Shown: positions 443 to 10,096 of the stretch, piece by piece
Numbering within the stretch: position 1 is the stretch's first letter
Layout of the letters: every line of letters starts with the position of its first letter
Source: an uncultured Chloroflexia bacterium
GTDB lineage: Bacteria > Chloroflexota > Dehalococcoidia > DSTF01 > JALHUB01
Reading direction: 5' to 3'
Assembly (NCBI GenBank): GCA_963726245.1
Contig: CAVSBT010000044.1
Span: 28,177 to 92,176 of the forward strand
DNA: 64,000 bases
Made by a program: the position numbers and the translations under genes
The notes under the pieces: model-generated
What the model was told of the DNA's origin: nothing
What the model saw: only the letters and a program-made list of their open reading frames with translations
The model's database searches: none

Positions 443-1449
443 TCTGTGGCTGATCCCGGCTGCGCCAGCCAGGCGGCGGCCTCCTTGGCGTGGTAGGTGA
501 TGATGATGTCGGCGCCGGCCCGCTTGATGGCCGTGAGCACCTCCAGCGCCGCGCGCCGGCCGTCGAGCCAGCCCAGGCGGTCGGCCGCCTTCACCATAGC
601 GTACTCGCCGCTGACGTTGTAGGCCGCCAGGGGCAGGTCGAAGCGCCGGCGAGCGCGGGCTATCACGTCCAGATAGGCGAGGGCCGGCTTCACCATCACG
701 ATGTCCGCCCCCTCGGCGATGTCGGCCTCGATCTCGCGGAGGGCCTCGCGGACGTTGGGCGGGTCCATCTGATAGCCGCGGCGGTCGCCGAACTGCGGCG
801 CCGAGTCGGCGGCGACGCGGAAGGGGCCGTAGAAGGCGGAGGCGTACTTGGCGGCGTAGGCCATGATCGGCAGGTGGGCGAAGCCGCCGTCGTCCAGGGC
901 GCGGCGGATGGCCGCCACGCGGCCGTCCATCATGTCCGAGGGCGCCACCATGTCGGCGCCGGCGCGGGCGTGCGAGAGGGCCGTGCGGGCCAGCAGCTCC
1001 AGCGTGCGGTCATTGTCCACCTCGCCATCCTCCACAACCCCGCAGTGGCCGTGGCTGGTGTACTCGCAGAGGCAGACATCGGTGATGACGACCAGCTCCG
1101 GCGCGGTCCGCTTGAGGATGCGCACCGCCTCCTGGACGATGCCGTCGTCGGCGTAGGCCTCGCTGCCCTCGTCGTCCTTGGCGGCGGGCAGGCCGAAGAG
1201 GAGGACGGCGGGGATGCCGAGGGCGCGCAGCTCCTCGGCCTCGCGGGCCAGCCCGTCGGGCGAGAGGTGGTACTGGCCGGGCATGGACTCGATCTCCCGT
1301 CGCAGGCCGTGGCCGTGGGCGACGAAGAGGGGGTAGACGAAGTCGGCGGGCGAGAGGCGGGTCTCCCGCACGAGGCCGCGCAGCCCCTCGCTGCGCCGTA
1401 GGCGGCGGAAGCGCGCGAAAGTGGGGTGAAGGACGGTGCGGGTGGTCAT
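439..1449 (-). CDS. hemB: Porphobilinogen synthase (delta-aminolevulinic acid dehydratase)
   Basis: [14 protein letters not shown] Zn site, [17 protein letters not shown] and MVKPA motifs. Confidence 0.97.
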
Positions 1450-1505
1450 GCCGCCCTAATTATACGCCGGTTCCAATCGGGCTGCCGGGGCAGGGAGAAG
1501 CCCCT

Positions 1506-2543
1506 CTACGGCTTGAGCACTATCTTCCCGAAGTGGCTCCCCGTCTCGAGCATCTGCTGCGCCTTCGCCGCGTCGCGCAGCGGCAGCACGGTGTCCACCA
1601 CGCACTTGATCTTGCCCGCCTCGACGGCCTTTAGCCCCTCCAGCAGCTCGCCCTTGTTCCCCTGGTGAGAGCCCAGCAACGAGAGCTGCTTCTGGAAGAG
1701 GAAGCGGAGGTCGGTCCGGCCCTCGAAGCCGGTGGTGACGCCGCAGATCACAAGCCGCCCGCCCCAGGACATGGCCTGGATGCTGCGCTCCCAGGTGGCC
1801 TCGCCGGTGTGCTCGAAGACCACCTCCACCCCTTTCCGGCCGGCGATGCGTTTGACCTCGGCCACCACGTCCTGCGTGTTATAGTTGACAGCCGCATCGG
1901 CACCGAGGGCCTTCGCCTTGGCGCACTTCTCGTCCGTCCCGCCGACGGCGATGACGCGGGCGCCCGTCAACTTCGCCACCTGAATGGCCACGTGGCCGAT
2001 GCCGCTGCTGGCGCCCCAGACGAGCACGTCCTCGCCCGGCTTGAGCTGCGCCCTCCCGATCAGCATGTGCCAGACCGTCAGCAGCACCAGGCCGATGCCC
2101 GCCCCTTCCTCCCAACTCAGGTTGGCGGGCATGGGTACCACGTTGGCCTCGGGTATGCGGGCGTACTCGCCGTAGGCGCCGTCCAGGGGCCCCGTCTGGA
2201 AGCCGTATATCTTGAAATGGCGGCAGAAGTACTCGTTGCCCGAGGTACAGGCGGCGCAAATCCGGCAGCTCACGCCGGGGTGGATCATGACCTTGTCGCC
2301 TACCTTGACAGTGGTGACGGCGCCGCCCACTTCCGCAACCTCGCCGGCGATGTCGCTGCCCGAGATATGCGGCAGGTCGAACTTCATGCCAGGCAGCCCC
2401 CGCCGGGCCCACACGTCGTTGAAGTTGCAGCCGATGGCGTGGATCTTGATGATGACGTCTGTCGGGCCCGGCTTGGGGTCCGGCACGTCCTCGTACTTCA
2501 AGACCTCTGGTCCGCCGTGCTCGTGGAACACAACCGCTTTCAT
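1506..2543 (-). CDS. Zinc-binding alcohol dehydrogenase / quinone oxidoreductase (MDR) family protein
   Basis: MKAVVFHEHGGPEVL start, structural Zn site CxxCxxC-x7-C, GASSGIG nucleotide-binding motif, HFGKIVL C-terminus. Confidence 0.9.
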   Translation of the reverse strand: MKAVVFHEHGGPEVLKYEDVPDPKPGPTDVIIKIHAIGCNFNDVWARRGLPGMKFDLPHISGSDIAGEVAEVGGAVTTVKVGDKVMIHPGVSCRICAACTSGNEYFCRHFKIYGFQTGPLDGAYGEYARIPEANVVPMPANLSWEEGAGIGLVLLTVWHMLIGRAQLKPGEDVLVWGASSGIGHVAIQVAKLTGARVIAVGGTDEKCAKAKALGADAAVNYNTQDVVAEVKRIAGRKGVEVVFEHTGEATWERSIQAMSWGGRLVICGVTTGFEGRTDLRFLFQKQLSLLGSHQGNKGELLEGLKAVEAGKIKCVVDTVLPLRDAAKAQQMLETGSHFGKIVLKP

Positions 2544-2778
2544 GTCTTGCTCTCCTCTGATTGGCAGCCGGCGCTACTCCAGCCCAACGGCCCGCATACG
2601 ATGGGTCGCGAAGGCCCTCCCCCGTGCGCAGCCACCTCTCGGCGCCGCTGACGGGCAGGCCCGCGCGACCAGATGAAGTCCGCAGCCAATGATCGCCTCT
2701 GTGAGACAGTAGCGCAAGGGCCCGGCGGACGGACGAAGCGCCGCTACAAGCCGGCGGGCCAAGCGATGGCCGGCACGC

Positions 2779-2807
2779 TTGAGAGCACGCTGCGACGGTG
2801 ATATGAT
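2779..2807 (+). promoter_or_regulatory. Sigma70-type promoter for riboswitch copy 1
   Basis: TTGAGA-N17-TATGAT with an extended -10 TG, about 17 nt upstream of the aptamer. Confidence 0.65.
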
Positions 2808-2824
2808 ACATGGCGCAGGAAACG

Positions 2825-2888
2825 GGCGATGAAGCTCGCCCGCCCGGATCATCCGGGGTACCGCCCAAACAGGGCTGATAGCTTCTAC
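2825..2888 (+). ncRNA. Fluoride riboswitch (crcB motif), copy 1
   Basis: P1 GGCGA-UGAAGC-UCGCC, P2 GCCC-AAACA-GGGC, then UGAUAGCUUCUAC, whose GCUUC can pseudoknot with the P1 loop GAAGC. This matches the crcB-motif architecture. Confidence 0.85.
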
Positions 2889-2914
2889 GGACTCACAGCC
2901 GTAGGAGCTTTCTT
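2880..2914 (+). terminator. Intrinsic terminator (riboswitch expression platform), copy 1
   Basis: AGCTTCTACGG-actcacag-CCGTAGGAGCT followed by TTCTT. Its 5' arm overlaps the pseudoknot strand. Confidence 0.75.
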
Positions 2915-2998
2915 GATGACGGGTTATGCCAGGCTCAAGCGTTCTGCAACCTTTCCCTTAGAGCCGACCAATCCATAGCTCTAGTATCGCTTGCTCCA

Positions 2999-3391
2999 AT
3001 GCCTACACGAACACCCTTCGACGTCCTTGGAGTCCCTCCTCATGCTAAGCTTGCCGTCATCCGTGCTGCATACCGCGCCCTCGCTCGGAAATACCACCCA
3101 GACACCGGTCGCATCCCCAGTGACAGATCGCACAAGCTCATGGTCGAGCTCAACTGGGCAATGGAGGAGCTGCAACGCGATCTTGCCGGCTGGCGAACAC
3201 GGGCTGGCGTCCAGCAGCCCGCCGACGCGAAGACCGACTCTTCCGTCAGAGTCCAGAACAATGAAGCCCCTGACTCCTCCACGCCCCACGCCAAGGCCTT
3301 TGACGAACGATGGAGGCGATTCATGGAGAAGTACTCGAGGAGCTGCTCCACGGACTCCTCCGACGAGACGCCGCTCTCAAAGAGCTGGTGA
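2999..3391 (+). CDS. J-domain (DnaJ-type) protein
   Basis: PFDVLGV...IRAAYRALARKYHPD...MVELNWA, a J-domain with the HPD motif. Confidence 0.8.
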   Translation: MPTRTPFDVLGVPPHAKLAVIRAAYRALARKYHPDTGRIPSDRSHKLMVELNWAMEELQRDLAGWRTRAGVQQPADAKTDSSVRVQNNEAPDSSTPHAKAFDERWRRFMEKYSRSCSTDSSDETPLSKSW

Positions 3392-3427
3392 AAGCCAGTG
3401 CCACCCCACAGTCGAAGAGGCGAGCGC

Positions 3428-3456
3428 TTGAGGCCGGGTGTCGGAGGTGCTAGCAT
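3428..3456 (+). promoter_or_regulatory. Sigma70-type promoter for riboswitch copy 2
   Basis: TTGAGG-N17-TAGCAT with an extended -10 TG, in the same position relative to the aptamer as copy 1. Confidence 0.65.
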
Positions 3457-3473
3457 ATAGACACGGAAAACGG

Positions 3474-3537
3474 GGCGATGAAGCTCGCCCGCCCGGACCA
3501 TCTGGGGTACCGCCCAAACAGGGCTGATAGCTTCTAC
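3474..3537 (+). ncRNA. Fluoride riboswitch (crcB motif), copy 2
   Basis: Near-identical to 2825-2888: GGCGAUGAAGCUCGCC...GCCCAAACAGGGCUGAUAGCUUCUAC. Confidence 0.85.
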
Positions 3538-3563
3538 GGATTCACAGCCGTAGGAGCTTTTTT
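3529..3563 (+). terminator. Intrinsic terminator (riboswitch expression platform), copy 2
   Basis: AGCTTCTACGG-attcacag-CCGTAGGAGCT followed by a T run. Confidence 0.8.
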
Positions 3564-3564
3564 C

Positions 3565-4431
3565 ATGGGGTTTGGGGAACGCGCTGTGGTCAGCACAGAG
3601 GTGGCGCCGCTCGCGCTGGACCTTTCTCGGGTCGCGGGCTACGTGGCATCGTGCCGCGTACCCGATGGAGGGTACTTCTTCGCCCAGATCTCGCCTGCCA
3701 GCGCCCAAGACACCTACTTCGCCCTTGCCTCTCTGCGACTCCTTGGGCAAGAGCCCCAAGACGTGACGGGTGTGAAACGATGGGTAGAGGAATGGCGCCG
3801 GACACCCAGTAACGTGGCCAGCGTCCACGGCGCGTACCTTCTCTGCGGCCTGCTTGAAGAGCTAGGCGAAGGCCTCGATCCGGCGCGTCCCTACGCCAGG
3901 CTGATCGCCGACAGCGAGAATAGCCTGGGGGGCTTCGGTACCTACGAGAACGTGTACGTGGAATCGGCATCAGAGCTTCAGGTGACCTGCGAGGTCGTGT
4001 CGGTGCTGACAAGATTGGGATGCCCGCCCAACCATGAGCGTGTTGAGAGTTTCTTGCGTCGGTTCCGTCAGCCAGACGGCGGATTCGGCCTCTACCGCTC
4101 GACGCTGCCCTCAACCTACCACGCGTGCGCCGCGCTTGCCCAACTGCCGGAGTCAGGGCCCCTCGTGGACGGCGCGCGGCTCTACCTCCAACGAGAGGCG
4201 CAGCGGTGGGCGGCTTATTTCCTAGACGATGTCTTCTACCTGATCCAAGGACTCAGCTTGACCGGCAGCGCGGCGGCATCTGCCGCCAATGCTGCCACCC
4301 ACGTGCTGGCCTGCCAGCGGCCGCGGGGTGGCTTTGCCCGCGCTCCCGTCATCGGCATTCCCACGCTGGAGCACACCTACTACGCCCTTCAGGTGCTCGA
4401 TTCGGTGGGTCTCCTCAGCGGGCAGCGATGA
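3565..4431 (+). CDS. Prenyltransferase/squalene-cyclase (PFTB-like) repeat protein
   Basis: Repeated (Q/R)xxDGGF..S..xTY(F/H)AxxxL units. Start moved from 3478 (inside the riboswitch) to ATG 3565, or possibly GTG 3601. Confidence 0.8.
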   Translation: MGFGERAVVSTEVAPLALDLSRVAGYVASCRVPDGGYFFAQISPASAQDTYFALASLRLLGQEPQDVTGVKRWVEEWRRTPSNVASVHGAYLLCGLLEELGEGLDPARPYARLIADSENSLGGFGTYENVYVESASELQVTCEVVSVLTRLGCPPNHERVESFLRRFRQPDGGFGLYRSTLPSTYHACAALAQLPESGPLVDGARLYLQREAQRWAAYFLDDVFYLIQGLSLTGSAAASAANAATHVLACQRPRGGFARAPVIGIPTLEHTYYALQVLDSVGLLSGQR

Positions 4432-5831
4432 GAAATGACGAGGGGATGCAAGCATTGAACCAGGTCCCCAAGAGTGAGGCCCCCAAAGACACCGCCGAAG
4501 CGGTCGTGCTGCGACCGAGGGGCACGTACAACGACTTCGTGTTTGATGAGCGATACCGTATGGTACGCCTGAAGGGGGTGGTCCGCCGGGCCGGCTCGGT
4601 GGCCGAGGTGGGAGAGGTGCGCGGGGCATGGGACTCCGACGGCGAGCCCTTCCAGGCTCTGGTATTCACCGCTTTGCCCACATTGCCCGGCTGTATAGTC
4701 CGCGGCCACGTCGAGGGCGCGCTGGAGGGTCGAACTGCGGAGGGCGCCAGGCATGCGCTCGTGCTGAGCACAGCCGGTCAGGGCGATGCTCTGTCTCAGA
4801 AAACGCTGGCTGGGCAGGTCCTACCAACGGCTGTCGCCCTCCTAGGTTGGAGGCCGTCCACCGAGGTGCGGTGGCTGGAGAAGGACGCAGCGCTCGCCCT
4901 GCTGTGGGAGGGACGCCAGAGACTGCTTGCCGATCGCGCCCGGCAGCGGCCGGCGCGGCATGGCGCCGCCTGGAAGGCGCAGCCCGGTGAACGCCCCCGA
5001 GAGGGTTCGCCCTACACGGAACCCCACACCTGGGCCGAAAGGATGGTGGGCAGCCTGCCCTTCCGATTCCAGCGTTATGTGCAGGACGAGCTTCTGGAGG
5101 AGGAACGCATACTCTTCTTCGTGGAGCGGCCTCCCTTCCGGCCGCCTGGGGCGCGCTGGGGCGTCCTGCGACGGCAGCGGTTGAGCGAAGGGCTTCTCAT
5201 CGTCACCGACCGGCAGCTCTTGTTCATGGAGGACGCTCTGCCCCCAGACATAACGATGGTTCACTGGGGGTACATCGCCCGTGTGACGGCCGTGGAACGA
5301 ATCCAGAGCGCAGAGCTGCGCGCGGAACCCGACCGCGCTGTCCTTCACGTCCGGGTGCATGCGCAATCTGGGTCAGAGCACCTCTCTGTGCCCTTTCCCC
5401 CGGAATGCAAGGACCCTCTCGCCGAAGTCGAGTCGCTCCTGCGGTCCTTCGCTTCGCCTGAAGGCGGCGCGGTCAGACGCCTCTACGCCGAGGAAGACGG
5501 GGCGAAAGACAGGGAGGTCGTGGAGGCGTCCAGCCGGGTAGGGAACTGGGCACGGGTCGAGGGGAAGGATGTGGTGGTTCACGGCCCGCGCGGCGAGGCG
5601 CGCCTTGACTCTGCCTGCATCTCGACTGTCGAGTTCATGAACTCACTGGTGGGGTGCCGCTTGAGATTCTTCTCGCCACAAGAGAGGCACCTTACCGAGT
5701 CCTCGGTGCCCTTCGAGTACCCTGAGGCTGAGCTGTTCCTGGCGGTCTACAAGAGGGTTCGCTGGCTGCTCGCGAGGCCGCTCGCTGCCCAGCCAGCCGG
5801 GCAAGACGCCGCCGCAACCGTGCAGCGATGA
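4428..5831 (+). CDS. Degenerate family I inorganic pyrophosphatase domain fused to PH-like domain(s)
   Basis: ATGA-coupled to the upstream gene. N-terminal AVVLRPRGT..FDE..DSDGEPFQALV..PTLPGCIV aligns by eye to Ppa (VVIEIP..DGDPVDVLV..P..PG.V). C-terminal L.EEERIL..GLLIVTDRQLLF resembles a bacterial PH domain. Confidence 0.7.
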   Translation: MRNDEGMQALNQVPKSEAPKDTAEAVVLRPRGTYNDFVFDERYRMVRLKGVVRRAGSVAEVGEVRGAWDSDGEPFQALVFTALPTLPGCIVRGHVEGALEGRTAEGARHALVLSTAGQGDALSQKTLAGQVLPTAVALLGWRPSTEVRWLEKDAALALLWEGRQRLLADRARQRPARHGAAWKAQPGERPREGSPYTEPHTWAERMVGSLPFRFQRYVQDELLEEERILFFVERPPFRPPGARWGVLRRQRLSEGLLIVTDRQLLFMEDALPPDITMVHWGYIARVTAVERIQSAELRAEPDRAVLHVRVHAQSGSEHLSVPFPPECKDPLAEVESLLRSFASPEGGAVRRLYAEEDGAKDREVVEASSRVGNWARVEGKDVVVHGPRGEARLDSACISTVEFMNSLVGCRLRFFSPQERHLTESSVPFEYPEAELFLAVYKRVRWLLARPLAAQPAGQDAAATVQR

Positions 5832-5981
5832 CGGCGGCCCGGCCACCCGGAAGCCCCTGCGCTCTTGTTCCAAAACGCTCAGCGGCGTGGACCTGGCCCC
5901 CCGCCCGGCCGAGGGTGCTGACTCTGCTATACTGGCGCCGCTGCACGGAGCCGATAAGCCATTATGACGGCAAGGTGTCCT

Positions 5982-6675
5982 ATGGCAAGGCTGCTGGCGG
6001 CGCTGACCGTCGTCCTCATGCTCACCCTCACTGCCTGCAAGAACGCCACATCTCACCACCACTGGGACGCCCAAAGGGATCGCAGAGCGCATAGACTGCA
6101 TCGCGGGAACGCCCGAAGCCATCATGGGGTGTGTAGAGCGTGCGGTGGCAGGCTCGGGAGGGTATCGCATTACGATCACCGGTCAGAATCTTGTCCTGCC
6201 CGAGTGGGGCGGGATCGACAGCGGAACGATTGATGTCGGCACGGACGGGACTGTGGTCCGAGGTGACGTCGAACGCACCGGTGACGGGCCATACTCCCTC
6301 GTCTCACTTGGCGGCGAGACGTTCTTCCAGCGCGGGACTTGTGACCACATGGCCCGTGTTCCTGGTGGCGGAGCGGCCGTGGTCACGCCCTTCCTGCTGG
6401 GCACCAGCGGGGCGTTGAGCCGAGCTACGAATGTGCGATTCGGTGGGACCGCCTACAAGGACTTCATAGCGGTCCGGGCGAACGTTGAAGACCTCGGTGA
6501 CGTGCTCATCCAGCTTGACACGTCGACCTACCTTCCGTTTCGACTGGTCAAAGAGCCTGGCCCCAACGGCGGAAGCCAATTCCAGTGGCTGTTCAGCGAT
6601 TGGGGACAGGCGCCGTCGGTCTCAAGACCGGCCGGCACACCCCCAGATCAGGGACCGGGCGGCAACCCCTGCTGA
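5982..6675 (+). CDS. Putative lipoprotein (apparent frameshift near 6050)
   Basis: Lipobox MARLLAALTVVLMLTLTA-C in one frame. The body continues in the 6124..6675 frame, which is open upstream of 6124. Confidence 0.6.
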
Positions 6676-6871
6676 AGGGGTCGGGCCCCGCTCAGCCTCC
6701 ACGTATTGACCCCTGCGCCGACTTCAGAAGTGCGCCTTCCGTCCGATCCTTTATTGGTGGCAGCTTGCCACCTCTCCTGACAAGAGGCTCATGGTCGCCC
6801 TACGGGAAGAGTGGTCTAGAGAGCAGCATGCGGACCAGGGGCCGGCCTCCGATGCGGAAGCGGCTCGCTGG

Positions 6872-7255
6872 ATGAGCCTGCGTCACGCTTCCTGCCGCCT
6901 CGACGTCTGCCCCAGCACCCTGCGCCGGCGAATCCGAAAGGGCCAGTTGCCCTGGCGCATCGTCAACCACGGCCGCCGCTGGGCCTACGAGGTGCTGGTC
7001 CCCAACGGCGCCTCCCCATGCGCCGCGCTCGAACGGGTGGTCAGCGTGGAAGCCCATCTCCCTCACCAGGTGGACGAGAAAGAGAAAGAGATCAACCGCC
7101 TGAAGTACGATATCCACCGCCAGGAAGAGCAGATTGAGAATCTGTCCCAGGCCCTGGCTCGGGCGCGGGCCGGAAGCCGCTACACGCCGGAGGACAGCCC
7201 CTTCACCAAGTATCGAGATCTGGCGCTCCGGCGCCGCCGCTGGTGGCTCTTCTAG
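6872..7255 (+). CDS. Helix-turn-helix DNA-binding protein with coiled coil
   Basis: MSLRHASCRLDVCPSTLRRRIRKGQL (MerR/excisionase-like HTH) followed by heptad repeats. The start could be at 6791. Confidence 0.65.
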   Translation: MSLRHASCRLDVCPSTLRRRIRKGQLPWRIVNHGRRWAYEVLVPNGASPCAALERVVSVEAHLPHQVDEKEKEINRLKYDIHRQEEQIENLSQALARARAGSRYTPEDSPFTKYRDLALRRRRWWLF

Positions 7256-7284
7256 TTCGCCTGTCTTGTGCCGGGCAACCGGCG

Positions 7285-7612: not shown

Positions 7613-7918
7613 TCAGGCTGGGCGCCTCAGGTAGATCTGCCGGGCGATGGAGAAGTCGATGGCCACCTCTGTCTCGCCCACCTGCACTACGGCGGCGGGC
7701 CGCTTCTGGAGGAGCCGCAGCACCGCATCGGGAACGATGCCAAGGCTGCTGAGATGCTCCAGGCGGCGGCCGTCGTCCGTCCCGATGTAGGCCACACGCC
7801 CCTCATCGCCCGGCCGCAAATCGGCGAGCGATGTCGCCTGTCCATCCCCCAGCCAGGCCCTCGGGCCACGACGGCGGCGCACGCGGGCCCGTCTGTGTCC
7901 GTGCATTCCCCACATCAA
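7613..7918 (-). CDS. feoA: Ferrous iron transport protein A
   Basis: SLADLRPGDEGRV...L.SLGIVP...VGETEVAI, an SH3-like FeoA pattern, in an operon with feoB. Confidence 0.85.
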   Translation of the reverse strand: MMWGMHGHRRARVRRRRGPRAWLGDGQATSLADLRPGDEGRVAYIGTDDGRRLEHLSSLGIVPDAVLRLLQKRPAAVVQVGETEVAIDFSIARQIYLRRPA

Positions 7919-8124
7919 GAGGCTTCCTTCCTAGCTTTGGCGCCCGTCTTCAGCACGGCTCCCGCCTTCCTGGCCAGCCGCACGAGGGCGCTTCGAGATT
8001 CGTCCACGGTCTGGTAGCCGCAGCGCGGGCAGCAGACGACCGGGCAGCCGCCCGAGAGCGGGCAAGCGGGGCTGCAACGCACGTCGTCTGGTGTGAATTC
8101 GTGGCCGCAGAGCGCGCACTTCAT
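7915..8124 (-). CDS. Small Cys-rich protein in the feo operon
   Basis: CxxC..CxxxCPxxxxCxxxCCPxCGY, tightly coupled between feoB and feoA. Confidence 0.75.
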   Translation of the reverse strand: MKCALCGHEFTPDDVRCSPACPLSGGCPVVCCPRCGYQTVDESRSALVRLARKAGAVLKTGAKARKEAS

Positions 8125-8125
8125 G

Positions 8126-10096
<1,971 letters not shown>

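Follow-up and report, generated by a model that had tools for sequence, protein, structure and literature searches.

We analysed a stretch of DNA of 64,000 nucleotides (nt), hereafter the window, from an uncultured Chloroflexia bacterium (assembly GCA_963726245.1, contig CAVSBT010000044.1), and within it an open reading frame (ORF) on the plus strand (4428..5831; coordinates are window positions unless otherwise named), whose frame is open throughout and translates into a protein of 467 amino acids (aa). This target protein combines an N-terminal domain that is homologous to family I inorganic pyrophosphatases (PPases), with an active site that appears to be dead, a linker, and two PH-like domains in tandem, and its gene lies behind a fluoride riboswitch, next to a gene for a prenyltransferase-like alpha/alpha toroid protein. 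Among the genes of fluoride-riboswitch regulons, which are a known class, it represents a pseudoenzyme with a new architecture. We give about even chances to the proposal that the product, a cytoplasmic protein and not a pyrophosphatase, acts as a non-catalytic scaffold in an uncharacterised fluoride-stress complex.

The PPase fold occupies residues 22-173 of the target protein (4491..4946, plus strand). As a single sequence the protein matches PF00719, the family of the soluble family I PPases (Ppa), with an E-value of 0.006 and 16.8 bits, thus failing the Pfam gathering cut-off of 23.5, and it reaches 14.2 bits against NCBIfam NF002317, where the cut-off is 200; more distant family members do exceed the PF00719 cut-off. 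A profile of 22 family members matches 37 solved family I PPases over profile positions 18-156, with a best E-value of 6e-17. The AlphaFold2 model of the target has a mean predicted local distance difference test (pLDDT) score of 77.5, with values of 81-92 across residues 21-110 and 72-92 across residues 111-170. When this model was searched with Foldseek, the 32 matches listed for ranks 1-50 (additional chains of the same entries being omitted) all belonged to family I PPases, and the best had an E-value of 1.5e-10 and a template modelling score (TM-score) of about 0.6 on the target. Profile and structure search therefore both recover the beta-barrel core with flanking helices, as the sequence-only reading had anticipated for such a comparison with Ppa, and the fold is still detectable in members at 25-35% identity. 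The target shares this fold with Thermus 2prd and Mycobacterium 4z7x over its N-terminal 150 residues or so, with detectable homology and with the structural motifs PxGxxNxYxxD, DGxPL and PGC/V in common. However, unlike these enzymes, it continues at the C-terminus for about 290 further residues, which include two PH-like domains, its Pfam score as a single sequence is below the cut-off, and it has lost nearly all of the catalytic residues.

We aligned the target to 2prd, the PPase of Thermus, and to a further three canonical PPases encoded in related genomes, and scored what we take to be the 14 catalytic and substrate residues of these enzymes in E. coli numbering (E20, K29, E31, R43, Y51, Y55, D65, D67, D70, D97, D102, K104, Y141 and K142). 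Only D65 remains (1/14), so that the domain has the fold of a family I PPase without its catalytic residues. The other positions carry E20 to L, K29 to D, E31 to V, R43 to G, Y51 to S, Y55 to V, D67 to E, D70 to Q, D97 to T, D102 to R, K104 to A, Y141 to R and K142 to P. The sequence-only reading had described a PPase fold with most catalytic residues replaced, and every substitution that it named was reproduced by these alignments: the EIP motif reads LRP, the K-x-E segment reads D-F-V, DR reads KG, DGDPxD reads DGEPFQ, and the DxxxxDxK motif is absent.

The loss extends to the whole family. In a tally of the 146 members of 400-620 aa among 184 proteins, 20 members keep none of the 14 residues, 63 keep one, 40 keep two and 18 keep three; higher counts are confined to two members with four, two with five and one with six, the maximum. 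Hence 123 of the 146 have two or fewer. By position, the former catalytic columns are retained in 0 to 61 of the 146 members, with K142 in 0, K29, D70 and K104 in two each, D102 in five, D67 in 10 and D65 in 56. Even the most PPase-like member seen, L069 (87 bits to PF00719), is without K29, E31, R43, D67, D70, D97, D102 and K104.

The family is large and under constraint. A word-indexed search returned 37 relatives and an exhaustive search 224 representatives of clusters at 50% identity (E-value up to 1e-3), across which the PPase-like domain is retained. In comparisons with 11 homologues, the ratio of nonsynonymous to synonymous substitution rates (omega) is 0.14-0.31, indicating purifying selection in all domains, with 0.16-0.30 for the N-terminal domain and 0.14-0.26 for the first PH-like domain (PH1). 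Since the values of the N-terminal domain are similar to those of PH1 and its fold is recognisable in distant members, we conclude that this domain is maintained and is not decaying. Some source records label relatives as 'inorganic pyrophosphatase', and these labels are automatic.

The gene order in the window is riboswitch 1, J-domain gene, riboswitch 2, toroid gene and target ORF, all on the plus strand. Aptamer 1 (2816..2894) matches the fluoride riboswitch family RF01734 with 39.3 bits (E-value 2.2e-7) and aptamer 2 (3465..3543) with 37.3 bits (E-value 1e-6), each over model positions 1-64 of 64 and above the gathering score of 34 bits, and these two are the only fluoride riboswitches found in the 46 contigs of the genome. 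Each aptamer is followed by a predicted expression platform that overlaps its 3' end: a terminator-like hairpin at 2880..2909, with an 11-pair stem, an 8-nt loop and then a T-rich tail, and a terminator hairpin at 3529-3558, with an 11-pair stem, which together with its TTTTTT tract spans 3529..3564 and ends at the ATG at 3565. A promoter-like site (2779..2807, plus strand) with TTGAGA, a 17-nt spacer, TATGAT and a TG element lies immediately 5' of riboswitch 1; it has 10/12 consensus matches and is a pattern match only, in a region in which the promoter scan gave two sites against 0.4 expected from shuffles. The toroid gene encodes 288 aa (3565..4431, plus strand; PF00432, E-value 1e-12, 48.6 bits against a cut-off of 26.5, from a scan run on 3556-4431), and we corrected its start to the ATG at 3565. 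Its TGA overlaps the ATG of the target ORF in the ATGA at 4428-4431. These results bear out two parts of the sequence-only reading, namely that the fluoride riboswitch context is real and that the target gene is co-transcribed behind it with a partner containing PFTB repeats.

We then considered whether this context is shared by relatives, using three genome loci and 64 metagenome loci, four of the latter outside the scan at the Rfam gathering level. At this level RF01734 was found twice in L001, once in L003 and not in L002, and in 12/20, 6/20 and 0/20 loci of the metagenome batches (18/60 in total). In E-value mode, all of nine further loci (9/9) have a full-length RF01734 match (27.9-31.6 bits) whose end lies at the listed first cassette ORF or not more than about 70 nt away from it, and six of seven more distant loci have one or several full-length sub-threshold matches, all 13 of them to RF01734. 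The sub-threshold variants, present in L049, L052, L053, L055, L056, L059, L060, L063, L065, L002, L067, L069, L072, L073 and L076, score 24-32 bits and retain the invariant core, with an additional hairpin between conserved strands. As variants with this hairpin score under the gathering score of 34, standard annotation overlooks many Chloroflexota fluoride riboswitches. A riboswitch model (R1) that we built from 23 of these sites gave 64 matches over 68 sources. In 39 loci the start of the first cassette gene is present with more than 150 nt upstream, the other 29 being cut off upstream, and in 36 of these 39 a same-strand riboswitch lies within 1.5 kb upstream, the exceptions being L038, L058 and L080. 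Behind this count stand the gathering-level hits in the window, L001, L003 and 18 of the 60 metagenome loci, together with the full-length sub-threshold hits. According to these predicted sites, the target family is almost always under fluoride riboswitch control.

The sequence-only reading had also seen a bacterial PH-like pattern in the C-terminal part of the protein. The PH-like fold was recovered, in two tandem domains instead of the single one implied. When residues 200-467 were modelled with 57 sequences, the model reached a pLDDT of 90.5 and a predicted template modelling score of 0.88, and shows two beta-sandwich-plus-helix units, each conforming in the model to the PH-like superfold of a seven-stranded beta-sandwich with a C-terminal helix. 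Foldseek with these residues retrieved the tandem-PH proteins BBS5, Rtt106 and centaurin alpha-1 together with the bacterial PH domains 3dcx and 3hsa, at a TM-score of 0.68 on the target. VIA-align matched the myotubularin PH-GRAM domain 1lw3 (Z 8.0, root mean square deviation (rmsd) 3.1 over 110 residues) and the bacterial PH domain 3b77 (Z 7.6, rmsd 3.2 over 111 residues), Z near 8 being moderate on the tool's own scale, and it matched model residues 152-254 to the PH domains of p62 and Sin1 (Z 6.1-6.6). The first domain (PH1) spans residues 228-342 (5109..5453, plus strand), and the second (PH2), which is delimited by the structure model and Foldseek and is the one matched to p62 and Sin1, spans residues 365-448 (5520..5771, plus strand). 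The target shares with all these PH proteins the beta-sandwich capped by a C-terminal helix, which occurs twice here, but it differs from them in its sequence, with 5-17% identity to the structural matches, and in a set of conserved residues that is specific to its family. None of the Pfam bacterial PH families (bPH_1 to bPH_6 and similar) matched the protein, PF00719 being the sole Pfam match at E-values up to 1. In the ESM Atlas, residues 200-467 matched unnamed hypothetical clusters at 0.90-0.91 and bPH_3 at 0.84, which serve as leads only. The C-terminal domains have the PH superfold but fall in no curated family.

We counted the positions conserved at 80% or more among 113 family rows that are at most 60% identical to the query. 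There are 3 such positions among 152 in the N-terminal domain, 11 among 54 in the linker, 13 among 115 in PH1 and 2 among 84 in PH2. The three in the N-terminal domain are G88, G97 and A155, none of them a former catalytic position. The conserved set comprises W182, E204, P211, R213, F214, E226, R227, R234, T260, D261, D269, G281, E290, R291, R351 and R445. The linker (residues 174-227; 4947..5108, plus strand), whose first part (about 185-202) is disordered and followed by two helices, carries W182, E204, P211, R213, F214, L222, E226 and R227, and PH1 carries R234, T260, D261, D269, G281, E290 and R291. Conserved residues are thus concentrated in the linker and PH1, and not in the old active site. 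The conserved site in the linker and PH1, the second PH-like domain and the widely conserved riboswitch-controlled cassette described below go beyond what the sequence-only reading contained.

A tblastn survey of the 68 sources indicates that the target gene usually belongs to a cassette with the order coiled-coil protein, toroid, target protein and DUF6062. The toroid gene directly precedes the target gene in 43/68 loci, the gene of a 193-aa coiled-coil protein precedes the toroid gene in 32/68, and a gene for a Cys-rich DUF6062 protein lies nearby in at least 27/68, in many cases with a convergent riboswitch of its own in front. Wherever else ORFs were listed, in nine loci (9/9), the toroid and target genes overlap by 4 or 11 nt or are separated by 0-1 nt. 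The toroid proteins share conserved DGGxF and GGFG repeats, and the homologues match the PF00432 repeat with 50-72 bits. In one protein from a public genome (P0036), the coiled-coil protein of the cassette takes the position of the PPase fold and is joined directly to the tandem PH module, with no toroid gene between them, an arrangement in keeping with a scaffolding or oligomerising function of whatever stands at the N-terminus.

A complex of the target with its PFTB-repeat partner, a check that the sequence-only reading had suggested, was predicted with a score of 0.54, the best of three controls being 0.00; the prediction runs have at least 62% of their contacts in common, and the pLDDT of the partner is at least 81. 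The mark applied to this score is reached by 116/157 solved complexes and by 2/215 mismatched pairs, and at 0.60 or under there are only 18/157 solved complexes, together with both of the mismatches that passed. The proposed partnership thus scored above the controls but within the weak band.

Taken together, these observations can be arranged into the following scheme. Fluoride would bind the upstream riboswitch or riboswitches, the overlapping terminator hairpins would then not form, and the gene would be expressed only under this condition, a fluoride-dependent read-through that we infer from the known behaviour of this riboswitch class. Translation of the target protein would be coupled to that of the toroid protein, whose gene lies immediately before its own. 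The dead PPase fold would be kept as a structural, probably oligomerising, scaffold, and the conserved polar surface of the linker and PH1 would be the working site, which may bind the toroid protein and, in relatives, also the coiled-coil and DUF6062 proteins of the cassette. The resulting fluoride-induced complex would lessen fluoride damage by means other than hydrolysis of pyrophosphate (PPi). Several points weigh against this scheme. Family I PPases are obligate oligomers, and it is by analogy with them that the PPase fold of the target is supposed to oligomerise. The conserved acidic and basic residues of the linker and PH1 could equally form a small-ligand or a catalytic site. The complex score falls in the weak band, where a pass is more often wrong than right unless the pairing is likely beforehand. 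The coiled-coil and DUF6062 genes, which are present in most relatives, were found neither in the window nor elsewhere in the own assembly, so that any complex in this organism would be a reduced one. The P0036 fusion is a single case among 184 proteins, and the R1 matches to its own 23 training sites arise by construction.

The sequence-only reading had suggested that a dead PPase fold under a fluoride riboswitch might be a fluoride or Mg sensor, a decoy, or a subunit modulating the active enzyme, and the pattern of conservation and the gene content of related genomes bear on each of these. If the N-terminal domain still bound fluoride, Mg2+ or PPi in the old pocket without turnover, it could be a sensor, or could shield other enzymes as a sink or decoy, and it is true that the fold derives from a classic fluoride target, that the gene is under a fluoride riboswitch, and that the target keeps D65 and has a conservative E at D67. 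However, a sensor or decoy working through the old Mg-PPi site would require its ligating residues to be conserved, whereas the residues that presumably hold PPi and metal are gone, the pocket is not conserved in the family (e.g., K142 in 0/146 and D65 in 56/146), and no former catalytic position is among the three conserved at 80% in the domain. We consider such a role unlikely. That the protein joins or modulates an active PPase under fluoride stress, either a soluble family I enzyme in mixed oligomers or a membrane H+-PPase, we regard as quite improbable. Family I enzymes being oligomers, a dead paralogue could enter mixed ones, two carriers of the family (G032 and G033) have canonical PPases, and the own genome has an H+-PPase; on the other side, we found no soluble PF00719 gene besides that of the target protein in the own assembly, which is 82.8% complete, no canonical one apart from the family member in the carrier relative G004 (93% complete), and none in the remaining 16 genomes of the host's taxonomic family, and thus none in any of its 18 genomes. 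The H+-PPase gene lies on another contig (C17) without a riboswitch, and nothing links it to the target. Given the lack of conservation in the pocket, and as our search of the own genome returned no gene for a soluble Ppa, the sensor, decoy and Ppa-modulator readings are all poorly supported.

Nor do we expect the protein to be an enzyme after all, be it a fluoride-insensitive PPase that uses other residues, or a catalyst of another reaction through the E/R/D/T cluster in the linker and PH1, and this possibility seems to us just as improbable as that of a PPase modulator. The strongly conserved polar residues E204, R213, E226, R227, R234, T260, D261, D269, E290, R291 and R351, the purifying selection on all domains, and the name 'inorganic pyrophosphatase' in some source records would agree with it, but no conserved polar residues are left in the PPase pocket, PH-like folds are typically binding modules and all structural neighbours found for the C-terminal half are binding domains, and the names in the records are automatic labels and not tests. 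Least probable of all, and in our opinion scarcely credible, is that the PPase-like part is a decaying remnant without function. Nearly all of its catalytic residues have been lost, as a remnant would lead one to expect, but its omega values, its retention across the 224 clusters, and the confident model of residues 21-170 argue against this reading.

We also asked how the family relates to fluoride export and to soluble PPases. Neither CrcB nor CLC was found in the own genome (82.8% complete), CrcB was found in 0/18 genomes of the same taxonomic family, 2/18 of which carry the target family, and CLC genes with open frames of 616-728 aa occur in 6/17 of the same-family relatives. In sister families the riboswitch stands in front of crcB as usual. 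A sample of 401 genomes of the phylum, which includes two unpublished CrcB-positive non-carriers (G260 and G071), gave 23 genomes with matches, five of which (G110, G218, G290, G349 and G402) were dropped as canonical PPases matching over the PPase part only, leaving 18 carriers. We rejected the idea that the family replaces the CrcB exporter, since CrcB is present in 6/18 carriers versus 183/383 non-carriers (Fisher p 0.33, the related genomes not being independent). In the carrier G426, crcB is 2.3 kb from the family gene. The idea that the family occurs only where a soluble PPase is missing was rejected as well, as G032 and G033 also have canonical PPases. Hence the family does not strictly substitute for CrcB, nor is its occurrence linked to a lack of Ppa.

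A comparison can be made with the fluoride-riboswitch operon ppaC-uspA-eno-gpmA-crcB of Enterobacter cloacae FRM (PMC5533749). Like that operon, the target gene is under RF01734 control, and related loci contain enolase, universal stress protein and phosphoglycerate-mutase-like His_Phos_1 genes. However, the PPase of strain FRM is an active Mn-dependent family II enzyme that is thought to replace the inhibited activity, whereas the PPase fold of the target appears dead; and whereas the FRM operon ends in crcB, no exporter gene is present in the window operon. A review counts pyrophosphatase genes with the most frequent associates of fluoride riboswitches (PMC11139923), and several of the neighbour classes in our distant loci are already linked to fluoride operons in these two sources (PMC5533749, PMC11139923). 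These distant neighbours are enolase, NUDIX, HEAT-repeat, MFS, universal stress protein, His_Phos_1, DUF190-CBS, a MutS domain V protein, a dynamin-DUF6062 fusion and MoxR-DUF58. The target also resembles pseudoenzymes in general, in which dead paralogues serve as scaffolds or regulators, in having an enzyme fold under purifying selection without catalytic residues. Neither the target family nor DUF6062 nor a dead family I PPase was described in any paper returned by our literature search, although members of the family were possibly counted as 'pyrophosphatase' in the list of Baker et al. (2012), which lay outside that search; likewise, the search returned nothing relevant on fluoride riboswitches with Chloroflexi or prenyltransferase, or on pyrophosphatase-like pseudoenzymes.

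Our understanding of the ways in which microbes deal with fluoride is guided mainly by the regulons of fluoride riboswitches, which also matter for attempts to engineer organofluorine degradation. Apart from those for exporters, antiporters and additional copies of the inhibited enzymes, the genes linked to these riboswitches mostly lack an explanation. The present family is widespread and automatically annotated as 'inorganic pyrophosphatase', which, by its residues, it apparently cannot be, and the conserved four-gene cassette is a candidate for a non-export response to fluoride. A PPase under a fluoride riboswitch is therefore not to be taken as a simple enzyme replacement. More speculatively, the cassette might be an unrecognised intracellular, non-export fluoride-tolerance machine in Chloroflexota, of which the own genome has a reduced form that, together with the J-domain co-chaperone, makes up its entire riboswitch-controlled fluoride response, an idea that we find doubtful. 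If it were true, dead look-alikes, and not spare enzyme copies, might account for some of the 'pyrophosphatase' genes that textbooks associate with fluoride riboswitches.

The riboswitch-controlled genes of the window lie in an island (2600-7260) between an alcohol-dehydrogenase-like gene (1506-2543, minus strand) and an HTH gene (6791-7255). Compared with L021-L025, L033 and L082, the relatives differ in their riboswitch-controlled coiled-coil, DUF6062, His_Phos_1 and J-domain genes, and a genome of the same genus has at the same chromosomal site only a riboswitch-controlled His_Phos_1 gene and DUF6062 remnants. As the sets of riboswitch-controlled genes differ at one site, this site behaves as a variable fluoride island. 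A gene of this island encodes a J-domain protein of 130 aa (2999..3391, plus strand; PF00226, E-value 4.9e-10, 39.8 bits against a cut-off of 27.8) with the HPD motif in its translation. It has its own riboswitch, which precedes the near-identical second riboswitch by about 650 nt in tandem, and in L033 a J-domain gene with 87% identity to the window copy is likewise behind a riboswitch. Induction of a DnaK co-chaperone by fluoride would suggest that fluoride stress also has to do with protein folding.

Several further observations were made in these loci. In L067 (907-2275 and 6730-8061 of that locus), a riboswitch stands directly before an MFS transporter gene and an enolase gene closes the same gene run; MFS carriers behind fluoride riboswitches could be unrecognised fluoride-related transporters. 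Five short riboswitch-like sites surround the DUF6062 gene, the family member and a DUF190-CBS gene in L076. In L003, from a Chloroflexia genome, genes for a MutS domain V protein and for a fusion of a dynamin-like GTPase with a DUF6062 segment (1342-4331 of that locus) lie just upstream of the riboswitch and the family member. Downstream of the target ORF in the window, one ORF (5964-6233), which has a lipoprotein-like signal, overlaps at its end with an ORF of 183 aa that is read in a different frame (6124-6675). This pair sits where relatives have DUF6062 and has only a weak TIG hint in Pfam; it may be a frameshifted or a novel small gene. Finally, on the minus strand at 7613-10096, the translations reveal an ORF for a FeoB-like transporter of 656 aa, with small FeoA-like ORFs upstream on the same strand.

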